This document shows, one piece after another, positions 49,192 to 58,290 of a stretch of DNA of 64,000 nucleotides (position 1 is the stretch's first letter; each line of letters begins with the position of its first letter). This stretch comes from Promethearchaeia archaeon. Lineage in GTDB: Archaea; Asgardarchaeota; Lokiarchaeia; Sigyniarchaeales; SOKP01. The stretch is from the NCBI GenBank assembly GCA_029856145.1, contig JAHQWK010000001.1:64001-128000 (forward strand), given 5' to 3'. The notes under the pieces were generated by a model. That model did not search any database. It had not been told where the DNA came from and saw nothing but the letters and a program-made list of their open reading frames with translations. A program made the translations under genes and the position numbers.

Positions 49192-49284
49192 GCGCGATTA
49201 GTCTAGTGGTTAGGATCTCGGCCTTCCATAGGTAGAACTAACTGAAGATAGCCGATGACCCGGGTTCAATTCCCGGATCGCGCA
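49192..49284 (+). tRNA. tRNA-Gly(TCC) with a 21-nt canonical intron at 37/38 (49229-49249)
   Basis: Acceptor GCGCGAT/ATCGCGC-A, anticodon stem TCGGC/GCCGA, T-arm CCGGG-TTCAATT-CCCGG; BHB central helix CTTC/GAAG. Confidence 0.93.
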
Positions 49285-55735: not shown

Positions 55736-57966
55736 ATATGCTTACGAAAAATTCTATAAGGATTTAAGAATCAATTCTAGATTTGTTATTTGTATATTTT
55801 AACATTTAGATCTTTTAATCAAAATATTTAAATATTTGATTATGAATATTTTTTTACATCCTCTTATATTCTCAGCATAAATGACATGAAATCAAAGGCA
55901 AAAGCAAAAATAACAATTTTAATAATTTTGGGAATTTTCTTCAACTTCTCAACTTTAATTATGACGAATCTCAAATTTAATACTGGAAATTTTAATAACG
56001 TCTTAGACTATAGTGATGATTTCAATATTGATACCAAAAATTTGAAGATCTCAAAAATCTCGGTAAAAATTCATATAATTAATAACTCAGGTTGGGTAGA
56101 TTTTAGAAATGCAGGATATTGTTCTGGTGAAGGGACTTATTCTTATCCTTACGTCATCGAAGATTTAGTAATAGATGGTGGAGGTTCGGGGAGCTGTATC
56201 ATTATTGAAAATTCCAACGTGTATTTTAGGATTGAAAATTGTAATGTGTATAATTCTGGTGATGATTATTATTATAATGGCGATGCGGGAATTAGTCTAT
56301 TCACGGTTCGTAATGGAATGATAATTGATAATAATTGTTCAAATAACTATCTTGGGATACGTTTATATGATTGTAATAATAACACCATTTCAGGAAACAT
56401 GGTTAATAACAACAGATATGGGATATATATAGTGCATAGTAATTTTTCTACCATTTCAGAAAATAACGTAAATAAAAACGGGTTTGACGCGATAGCTTTA
56501 CGTTTTAGTAATTCTAATAATATTTCAAGAAATAATGCAAGTTTCAATTATAATTGCGGGATATGTTTATATAATTGTAATAATAACACCATTTTGGGAA
56601 ATACAGCTAATGATAACGCATATGGGATATCTTTAGGTTATAGTGATTTTACCACCATTTCAGAAAATAAAGCAAACAACAACAACTATTATGGGATATA
56701 TTTATCTTTTACTTATTCTAACAATATTTCGAGAAATATAATGAATAAATGTGGTTTAAGGATAAAAGGTTCTCTTGAAGAATTAATTTCTAATGAAATC
56801 GATACTACAAATTTAGTGAATGGAAAATTTTTGTATTATTATACTAATCAAATGAATTTAGGACCAAACAATTTTACTAATGCTGGACAGGTTATATTGA
56901 TCAAGTGTAATAATTCATCAATAACAAATATAAATACATCATACAGTTCTATTGGTATTTATTTATATTGCTGTAATGACAACACGATTTCGGGAAATTA
57001 CGCAAGTTTCAATAAGGATGATGGGATACATTTAGATGGAGGTTCTAATAATATCATTTCAAATAACACCACAAATAACAACAGATATTATGGGATATTT
57101 TTAGGTGGAAGTTCTAATAATATCATTTTAAATTGCACCTCAAATAACAACAGATATTATGGGATATTTTTAATTGGAAGTGATAATTCTATCGTTTCGG
57201 GAAACACCTTTAATAGCAATATCAAAGGGATAGATTTAAGTTATGGAGATAATTGCACAATTTCGGAGAATAATGTATGTGAAAATAGTGGTAGTGGGAT
57301 ATACTTATATATAAGTAATAATAATACTATTTCGGAAAACACAGTAAATTACAACGATAATGGAATATGTTTAGAAGATGAGAGTGATAATAACACCGTT
57401 ACAATGAACACCGTAAATTACAACGATAATGGGATAATATTGAGTTCAAGTGATTACAATATAATTTCAAGAAACATTTTAAATGGAAATGATATTTGTA
57501 TTAGTGAATTTAATTCCGAAGGTAATGTTTTTGTAAATAACTATTGTTATGATCCATTTCAAGACAAAATTCTATTCTTTCTACTTGTTACTCTTTCCAT
57601 TGTATCAGTCATTATAAGTTTTACGTCAATCTTTATATATAAAAAAACGAGAAAATTTTAGTAAAATTAAATAATCTCATAAAAAGACTTTAAATGATAT
57701 TTTTTCCTTTTTAAATTTTTAAAGTTAAATAATAAGAGATAATAAAAATCCAAGAGAATAGATTTTGGTATTTTTTATTTAAATGCCTATAAAATTATAT
57801 GATTTTATATTTTTAGAATAAAATATTAAATAAAAAGAAGTGATAGTTTTGAAAATAAATGGAGAAGAGACTTTCTTTGGAGAAGATATTAGCACTCCTG
57901 AACAATTTATCTTGTATTTATCACTTTTAGCAATAAAATAAAGAAATCTTCAAGATTCAATTCTTA
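55678..57966 (+). repeat. 57-bp perfect direct repeat (55678-55734 and 57910-57966) bracketing paralog 3
   Basis: TCTTGTATTTATCACTTTTAGCAATAAAATAAAGAAATCTTCAAGATTCAATTCTTA occurs twice; it equals the 3' end of paralog 2. Confidence 0.9.
55886..57661 (+). CDS. NosD/CASH parallel beta-helix surface protein, paralog 3
   Basis: Same architecture. Confidence 0.88.
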   Translation: MKSKAKAKITILIILGIFFNFSTLIMTNLKFNTGNFNNVLDYSDDFNIDTKNLKISKISVKIHIINNSGWVDFRNAGYCSGEGTYSYPYVIEDLVIDGGGSGSCIIIENSNVYFRIENCNVYNSGDDYYYNGDAGISLFTVRNGMIIDNNCSNNYLGIRLYDCNNNTISGNMVNNNRYGIYIVHSNFSTISENNVNKNGFDAIALRFSNSNNISRNNASFNYNCGICLYNCNNNTILGNTANDNAYGISLGYSDFTTISENKANNNNYYGIYLSFTYSNNISRNIMNKCGLRIKGSLEELISNEIDTTNLVNGKFLYYYTNQMNLGPNNFTNAGQVILIKCNNSSITNINTSYSSIGIYLYCCNDNTISGNYASFNKDDGIHLDGGSNNIISNNTTNNNRYYGIFLGGSSNNIILNCTSNNNRYYGIFLIGSDNSIVSGNTFNSNIKGIDLSYGDNCTISENNVCENSGSGIYLYISNNNTISENTVNYNDNGICLEDESDNNTVTMNTVNYNDNGIILSSSDYNIISRNILNGNDICISEFNSEGNVFVNNYCYDPFQDKILFFLLVTLSIVSVIISFTSIFIYKKTRKF

Positions 57967-58128
57967 GATAAATTTTAATGAAAAATTACTAAAATAAATC
58001 AGGATACTGATTTTAACAAGTAAACGATATACATGAAAAAACTTTATATGATATTTTTTCCTTTTTAAATTACGAATTTTGATATTTTAAAAACTTAAAT
58101 GTTTTATAAAGTAAAAATTCTCAACCTA

Positions 58129-58290
58129 GCCAAGGTGGCGTAGCCTGGGAACGCACTAGAATCATCAGAATTACTGATAAAGGTGAAACTGAAGATCTAG
58201 GTATCGAGTAAAATGGGCTCTTCGTCCATTTTCGGGAAAGTTCAAAGGGATTCGCCTTGAACGGATTCCGGAATCATCTCTCCCTTGGCA
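58129..58290 (+). tRNA. tRNA-Phe(GAA) with three non-canonical introns (30/31: 58160-58187; 51/52: 58209-58238; 58/59: 58246-58275)
   Basis: Removing the three segments yields a 74-nt cloverleaf GCCAAGG TG GCGT AGCCTGGGA ACGC A CTAGA CTGAAGA TCTAG GTATC GAGAG TTCAAAT CTCTC CCTTGGC A; each junction forms a BHB-like motif. Confidence 0.88.

Follow-up and report, generated by a model that had tools for sequence, protein, structure and literature searches.

Introduction

Transfer RNA genes with several introns are well described in Asgard archaea: in three complete genomes, 92-95% of the tRNA genes contain introns and more than half contain several, with multi-intron tRNAs in Atabeyarchaeia and Freyarchaeia (Valentin-Alvarado 2024, PMC11291895). 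A preprint of October 2026 (10.64898/2026.10.13.758758), covering 90 Asgard genomes, reports as many as five intervening sequences in one gene, together with repeated gains, an enrichment of bulge-helix-bulge (BHB) motifs and a two-subunit EndA, and its Figure 2a shows a three-insert tRNA-Phe(GAA) of Atabeyarchaeia. The framing of triple-intron tRNAs as best described in the Thermoproteales, given in a sequence-only reading of the locus studied here, is out of date in the light of these two reports.

Here, we analyse a tRNA-Phe(GAA) gene with three introns from an archaeal genome, which is a sound further instance of this published Asgard phenomenon. It shares with the described Asgard cases the phylum, short introns of about 20-30 nt at non-canonical sites in the D arm, anticodon stem and T arm, BHB-type boundaries, an (alpha-beta)2 EndA, repeated gain and loss among close relatives, and the fact that standard annotators miss such genes. 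Those papers centre on Jordiarchaeia and Atabeyarchaeia, and the main text of the preprint makes no mention of Lokiarchaeia or Promethearchaeia, whereas the series described here stays within one genus and follows a single orthologous gene, in which 0-4 introns are spread over about nine sites and some alleles are intron-free.

Three other systems are close enough to be compared. In Thermoproteales, up to three introns per tRNA gene are described (Sugahara 2007, 2008; Fujishima 2010; reviewed in PMC4033280, PMC4090602), which resemble the present case in their non-canonical sites (D-loop, anticodon stem, T-loop), their relaxed hBH or HBh' motifs and their predicted or known dependence on a heterotetrameric EndA with a Crenarchaea-specific loop. 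The Thermoproteales, however, are another phylum, and similar introns recur across their tRNA genes, which is read as transposition, whereas the three introns here are single-copy in the genome and tRNA-Phe introns are uniform in size across the genus. The three-intron tRNA-Ile(UAU) of the red alga Cyanidioschyzon merolae also combines D-, anticodon- and T-arm introns in one gene (PMC3728597, PMC9602550), and RT-PCR of its intermediates indicates a preferred order of removal (PMC9602550); this is a eukaryote with another endonuclease complex, and the order was measured there but is only modelled here. Finally, the canonical intron at 37/38 with its strict hBHBh' motif (Marck and Grosjean 2003, as cited in PMC11291895) has the same 3-nt bulges cut after the second base and the same 4-bp spacing; it is present in the tRNA-Phe of some relatives (L054, L048, L106), whereas none of the three introns considered here lies at that site, their outer helix is weak or absent, and two of their central helices have three pairs.

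Results

Structure of the gene and of its spliced product

The gene occupies 162 nt on the forward strand (58129-58290) of the window, i.e., the whole 64,000-nt stretch of DNA that was analysed, and sits in a 640-nt gap separating two protein genes, with no ORF of at least 60 aa overlapping it. As read from the sequence, excision of 28, 30 and 30 nt after Sprinzl positions 30, 51 and 58 leaves a 74-nt tRNA-Phe(GAA). The expectation of a fully paired 74-nt cloverleaf agrees with both programs applied to the spliced sequence: ARAGORN calls it tRNA-Phe(gaa), and the RNAfold minimum-energy fold is the full cloverleaf (-24.9 kcal/mol). The spliced molecule has the core bases U8, G18G19, U33, the T-loop UUCRA (UUCAAAU) and G53-C61, together with G20, G37 and A73, which can be read directly. 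These last three bases are typical of tRNA-Phe, and G20 and A73 are identity elements for PheRS.

The unspliced gene starts with GCCAAGG and ends with CCTTGGCA, encoding no CCA tail. Exon 1 (58129-58159, +; Sprinzl 1-30) contains the 5' strand of the acceptor stem, the D arm and positions 27-30 of the anticodon stem. Exon 2 (58188-58208, +) comprises position 31, the anticodon loop CUGAAGA, the 3' strand of the anticodon stem, the variable loop and T-stem positions 49-51. It is followed by exon 3 (58239-58245, +), a micro-exon of only 7 nt (AGUUCAA, positions 52-58), and by exon 4 (58276-58290, +; positions 59-73), which contains AU, the 3' strand of the T-stem (CUCUC), the 3' strand of the acceptor stem and A73.

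The motif TTTATAA (58103-58109, +), some 23 nt ahead of the mature 5' end, is to judge from its sequence a likely archaeal TATA box. About 55 nt upstream, TTTATAA included, are conserved genus-wide, also in species with an intron-free gene, and the motif would be the promoter element of the tRNA-Phe gene. The upstream neighbour (55886-57661, +) encodes an Asn-rich protein of 591 aa with a hydrophobic segment at its N-terminus, a membrane anchor at its C-terminus and many short NN.IS.N repeats resembling a parallel beta-helix; it is likely a surface protein.

Orthologues across the genus

The window's genome (G000) is a MAG of 3.55 Mb in 32 contigs (97% complete, 5.4% contamination, 30% G+C), and its genus is represented by 54 species-level genomes in the collection compared. 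The first 15 nt of exon 1, a pattern common to the genus, are present with at most one mismatch in 39 of these 54 genomes, and two further genomes, recovered by BLAST, hold a tRNA-Phe gene with a variant acceptor stem, which gives 41 genomes in total. With an intron-free copy as the reference and long insertions allowed, 41 alleles were aligned, and all 41 gave a 74-nt product; with the two variant-acceptor genes, which were read by eye, the set comprises 43 alleles. Introns are absent from three of these alleles, while four alleles have one, 15 have two, 11 have three and 10 have four. They fall at about nine sites (15/16, 19/20, 21-22, 30/31, 37/38, 47/48, 51/52, 58/59 and 59/60), and their sizes are uniform, 80 of the 102 introns of the gene across the genus measuring 28-31 nt. 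One genome with 9% contamination (G003) holds three tRNA-Phe alleles with differing intron sets on three contigs (L014, L019, L055), probably because strains or species are mixed in the bin.

The three intron-free alleles (G001, G050, G051) score about 65 bits with the Rfam tRNA model (RF00005) and differ from the spliced product of our gene by compensatory stem changes only; their T-stem reads GGGAG/CUCCC, which does not allow slippage. They carry the same upstream block (attacgaattttgatatt...) and hence lie at the same locus, which means that the three proposed excisions are what evolution did or undid in sister species. Judged by this comparison, the intron boundaries are fixed independently by intron-free orthologues.

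Seven relatives (G004, G007, G047, G022, G045, G055, G046) have the same three introns as the gene in the window, four of them with a fourth intron in the D-loop, and together with it they form a set of eight genes. In this set variation is seen in 34 of 88 intron columns and in none of the 53 exon columns (Fisher p = 6e-9): positions 21-30 of exon 1 (alignment columns 1-10) and the whole of exons 2, 3 and 4 are invariant. Among the distinct mature sequences predicted for the genus, the stem pairs 2-71, 28-42, 50-64 and 52-62 covary. By these sequence comparisons, the conserved entity is the spliced molecule.

The T-loop site at positions 58-60 is occupied, in different species, by at least four introns of unrelated sequence (L007, L014, L035, L058, L001 and others), i.e., the families GGGAUUCG... 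at 58/59, AAAAAGCCC...UUCGAGC at 59/60, GUACCCUUUGCGAA... and AUACACCAGCAG..., and this presence of unrelated introns at one site suggests a hot spot of repeated intron insertion or replacement.

BHB motifs of the three introns

In the standard BHB geometry, which was used here, the central helix joins four exon bases to intron bases n-5 to n-2, the 5' bulge consists of two exon bases and the first intron base, and the 3' bulge of the last two intron bases and the first base of the next exon. This single register fits nearly all of the about 100 introns found at about nine sites of the tRNA-Phe gene genus-wide, whatever their sequence, and the bulges are in register in all three introns of the gene in the window. 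Intron 1 (58160-58187, +; 28 nt at 30/31) has a central helix CACU/GGUG with all four pairs (one of them G-U), bulges AG↓A and AA↓A, an inner hairpin AUCAG/CUGAU of five pairs and an outer helix that is almost absent (one pair). Intron 2 (58209-58238, +; 30 nt at 51/52) has a central helix (A)UCG/CGG(G) with three of four pairs, bulges AG↓U and AA↓A, an inner helix AAAAUGG(G)/(C)CCAUUUU of nine pairs and an outer helix made of G-U pairs only; its central helix has 4 bp in G004 and G022. Intron 3 (58246-58275, +; 30 nt at 58/59) has a central helix (G)UUC/GGA(A), again with three of four pairs, bulges AA↓A and UC↓A and an eight-pair inner helix GGGAUUCG/CGGAUUCC; in relatives the central helix has all four pairs, as GUUC/GAAC (G055, G046) or GUUC/GAGC (G007). 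Its outer helix, the 4-bp GAGA/UCUC, becomes contiguous only after removal of intron 2. The helices and bulges quoted in the sequence-only reading, including this late extension of the outer helix of intron 3, are all present as it gave them.

If a central helix is strictly required to have 4 bp, only that of intron 1 is complete in this genome, and under the rule of the preprint (10.64898/2026.10.13.758758) intron 1 is canonical whereas introns 2 and 3 are relaxed. With their outer helices weak or missing, all three motifs are of the relaxed HBh' kind. The same product results if the cut of intron 1 slides to 31/32 or that of intron 3 to 59/60; for intron 3, the registers 57/58 and 59/60 were rejected because they give poorer central helices in this gene.

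Covariation points to the same structures. Among 15 distinct sequences of intron 1, 86.7% of the cells are paired, compared with 28-46% in slid controls, and five pairs show compensatory changes, while 30/31 introns of unrelated sequence all keep GGUG and 2 nt before A31. The inner helix of intron 2 has two pairs with double compensatory changes among the eight related genes, in which the three-BHB structure as a whole has 90.5% of its cells paired, compared with 25-42% in slid controls. A composite BHB score at least as high as that of intron 1, at exact boundary and length, is reached at 1.2% of the positions of the contig, and one at least as high as that of intron 2 (score 14) or intron 3 at 0.013%. 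Searched by blastn-short for copies elsewhere in the genome, the three introns matched only themselves, apart from one 20-nt match at C2:124899, which was rejected as a transposed copy since it falls within the coding sequence of an ABC-ATPase.

The BHB conformers make up a minor part of the RNAfold ensembles at 37 C, and in constrained partition-function folds of the full precursor, forming the BHB costs 8.3 kcal/mol for intron 1, 4.1 kcal/mol for intron 2 and 5.3 kcal/mol for intron 3. The high cost for intron 1 arises because the D and anticodon stems and a family-specific extended hairpin compete with its BHB. This hairpin (58160-58200, +), in which UC.AUCAG of intron 1 pairs with CUGA.GA of the anticodon loop and UUACU with GGUGA, is the minimum-energy fold, and 92.5% of its cells are paired in the 15 sequences of the intron 1 family. 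We rejected it as the cleavage substrate because it hides both cut sites, placing them in or beside helices, and is limited to this family, being absent from the unrelated 30/31 introns, which all keep the BHB register. It may be a competing or protective fold.

Inventory of tRNA genes and their visibility to standard finders

A blastn-short search of the genome with the mature sequence matched the locus at 58129-58290 alone. We also used an intron-aware finder, which pairs acceptor stems and then seeks T, D and anticodon arms, allowing jumps over BHB-scoring inserts. It gave 25 believable tRNA genes, of which seven are intron-free, 11 have one intron, three have two and four (Phe, Trp, Leu-GAG and Ile-UAU) have three, and none of the 25 has a GAA anticodon besides the locus studied here. 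The Rfam tRNA model at its gathering score also returned 25 tRNA genes in this 97%-complete genome, to which the intron-aware finder adds several hidden ones, and GAA was not found among the further Rfam matches whose anticodon could be read by eye. A second tRNA-Phe in the genome, listed in the sequence-only reading among the things to check, was thus found neither by blastn-short nor by the intron-aware finder nor among the Rfam matches, and the locus is apparently the only tRNA-Phe gene of the genome, as far as its sequence can tell. The strict finder and the Rfam matches together account for about 36 of about 46 expected genes, with about ten unfound; owing to this incompleteness the single-copy case is strong and not absolute, and leaves some room for a second tRNA-Phe that is very divergent or interrupted in the acceptor stem. 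For a sole reader of phenylalanine codons, the three introns would need to be removed accurately for the cell to live.

Two ARAGORN calls of a tRNA-Phe elsewhere were rejected. The one at C18:15577 is a tRNA-Thr(CGU) whose 18-nt intron is a canonical one at 37/38; the 32/33 intron proposed by ARAGORN has no BHB, and the discriminator is U. The one at C11:16642, with an 'intron' of 1706 nt, is absent from the results of both the intron-aware finder and Rfam and was taken as spurious.

On the unspliced tRNA-Phe locus ARAGORN makes no call, whether its intron mode is on or off, and the Rfam tRNA model (RF00005) does not match the locus, either at the gathering score or genome-wide at E<=10. The prediction that standard scans may miss the gene therefore proved correct for both tools, whereas the further prediction of a miscall from an intronic CAT did not hold for ARAGORN, which calls nothing there. 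Elsewhere in the window (49192-49284, +), ARAGORN by default reports a tRNA-Trp(CCA), which becomes tRNA-Gly(UCC) once a 21-nt intron after position 37 is removed; the genuine tRNA-Trp(CCA) gene of the genome lies at G000:C9:633878 and has three introns. The case of the tRNA-Phe illustrates how genomes of this kind seem to lack tRNAs when they are annotated with standard tools (ARAGORN, the Rfam tRNA model).

Splicing enzymes and host

The genome encodes two EndA paralogues, on contigs C11 and C24. Almost the whole of the C11 protein (198 aa) can be aligned with the catalytic alpha subunit of Aeropyrum pernix EndA (E = 1e-34), including the loop ...G(S/Q)PL...KPR.., which has the counterparts of residues K44 and R46 in the Crenarchaea-specific loop; read by eye, the catalytic Tyr, His and Lys are in the expected motifs. 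The C24 protein has no His in the catalytic motif, as expected of a structural beta subunit. A two-subunit EndA agrees with the report of Kaneta et al. on Asgard archaea (PMC5829648). The Crenarchaea-specific loop confers a broad substrate range (PMC3241643), and an (alpha-beta)2 EndA with the specificity loop cuts motifs that lack an outer helix (PMC5829648, PMC3241643). An EndA of relaxed specificity had been named as a need of such a gene, and the genome does have the two-subunit type that cuts relaxed motifs, with the loop kept in its C11 alpha subunit and C24 as beta subunit. The ligase RtcB is also present (568 bits).

The assignment of the DNA to an Asgard lineage is borne out by a full-length actin (441 bits), three further actin-family genes and a profilin-like match, as well as by contigs with the same tRNA exon which, among the matches listed, are named Promethearchaeia, Promethearchaeota, Hermodarchaeota or Odinarchaeota; over the wider contigs the 15-nt exon pattern is unspecific, most of the at least 120 matches listed being chance bacterial ones. 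On this sequence evidence, Asgard of the Loki type (Lokiarchaeia/Promethearchaeia-type) is a fair label for the genome.

Relation between introns 2 and 3

Intron 2 at 51/52 interrupts the 5' strand of the outer helix of intron 3, in which G49-A52 pair with U60-C63, and A50 and G51, which are bulged for the cutting of intron 2, are paired in that helix. The outer helix forms when the T-stem slips, so that its pairs run from G49-C63 to A52-U60 and no longer from G49-C65 to G53-C61, which is possible because GAGAG/CUCUC is a dinucleotide repeat that can shift by two bases. When intron 2 is removed, the modelled cost of forming the BHB of intron 3 in this gene drops from 5.3 to 3.1 kcal/mol, and in the thermodynamic model it falls by 0.7-4.0 kcal/mol in all eight related genes; these are close kin and count as one observation, not as eight. 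In the reverse case, the cost for intron 2 after removal of intron 3 falls in two of the eight genes and rises or stays in six. The central helix, both bulges and the inner helix of intron 3 can form with intron 2 still present.

Discussion

We consider it highly probable (about 0.9) that the locus is a single functional tRNA-Phe(GAA) gene of an Asgard archaeon with three BHB introns that would be spliced by EndA and RtcB. A precursor of about 162 nt would be transcribed, probably under the direction of the conserved upstream TATA box, and the introns at 30/31, 51/52 and 58/59 would each fold with the adjoining exon into a bulge-helix-bulge, with a central helix of 3-4 bp between four exon bases and four bases near the 3' end of the intron, a 3-nt bulge on each strand that is cut after its second base, a hairpin of 5-9 bp inside the intron and an outer exon-exon helix that is weak or missing, i.e., the relaxed HBh' form. 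The heterotetrameric (alpha-beta)2 EndA with its broad-specificity loop would cut both bulges, RtcB would presumably join the exons into the 74-nt tRNA, and CCA would be added afterwards. As a best guess, introns 1 and 2 are removed independently of the other introns, whereas intron 3 is probably cut more efficiently once intron 2 has gone, as a preference and not an obligation.

The locus might instead be a decaying tRNA pseudogene, or carry insertions that are never removed, with phenylalanine codons read by another gene. That standard tRNA finders miss it, that the BHB conformers are minor in thermodynamic models and that the tRNA inventory is incomplete would all suit such a reading, but a decaying gene would hardly keep its exons invariant while its introns vary, or preserve through compensatory changes the cleavable shape of the inserts. 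Moreover, the same gene, with differing intron sets, is the sole candidate for tRNA-Phe in 41 genomes of the genus, no other GAA tRNA was found in the 97%-complete genome, and the promoter-like block upstream is conserved, so that we regard decay as very improbable. Still less credence can be given to the idea that the inserts are chimeric joins made in assembly or binning, although contamination of this 32-contig MAG stands at 5.4%: the same three inserts recur at the same positions with 90-93% identity in the seven independently assembled relatives, and the gene lies 122 kb inside a 649-kb contig.

The functional three-intron gene is compatible with more than one course of splicing. At its strictest, the order would be obligatory, with intron 3 left uncut until intron 2 is removed and with fixed intermediates, and several observations could be taken this way: intron 2 sits within the outer-helix strand of intron 3 and competes with it for A50 and G51; the effect in the models runs one way in all eight genes and is inconsistent in reverse; the 58/59 family occurs only alongside a 51/52 intron and a GAGAG/CUCUC T-stem (8/8); and the three-intron tRNA of the red alga C. 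merolae offers an experimental precedent (PMC9602550). The modelled effect is small, however, the tail of intron 2 can give an imperfect substitute helix in the unspliced precursor, and shared descent explains the co-occurrence of the 51/52 and 58/59 introns. Besides, an (alpha-beta)2 EndA with the loop cuts motifs without an outer helix (PMC5829648, PMC3241643), and we therefore hold a strict obligation to be unlikely. It is plausible from the models that intron 2 is preferentially removed before intron 3, which would then be cut better because the slipped GAGAG/CUCUC T-stem provides an outer helix of 4 bp; removal in simple 5'-to-3' order during transcription would also agree with these observations. 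A stronger version, in which the slipped T-stem left by removal of the 51/52 intron would turn the 58/59 intron into a strict hBHBh' substrate, with the order 2 -> 3 built into the exon sequence, seems doubtful to us. Of the stepwise splicing proposed in the sequence-only reading, the structural basis and the one-way effect in the models among the eight kin thus stand, whereas the order itself is tentative.

As the general phenomenon has already been published, the value of the gene lies in being a well-documented case and a test system, not in discovery, and the within-genus series goes a little further than the papers compared here, with 0-4 introns in one gene, at least four unrelated T-loop introns and 28-31 nt in 80 of 102 introns. 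For the organism, a gene with three introns appears to be alone in reading its phenylalanine codons. The natural series, from 0 to 4 introns at about nine sites in 41 genomes, is suited to the study of the gain and loss of tRNA introns and of the tolerance of Asgard splicing enzymes, and, if the order of removal is indeed built into the exon sequence, the alleles of the genus with 0-4 introns would make both splicing order and intron gain and loss directly testable in an Asgard archaeon.
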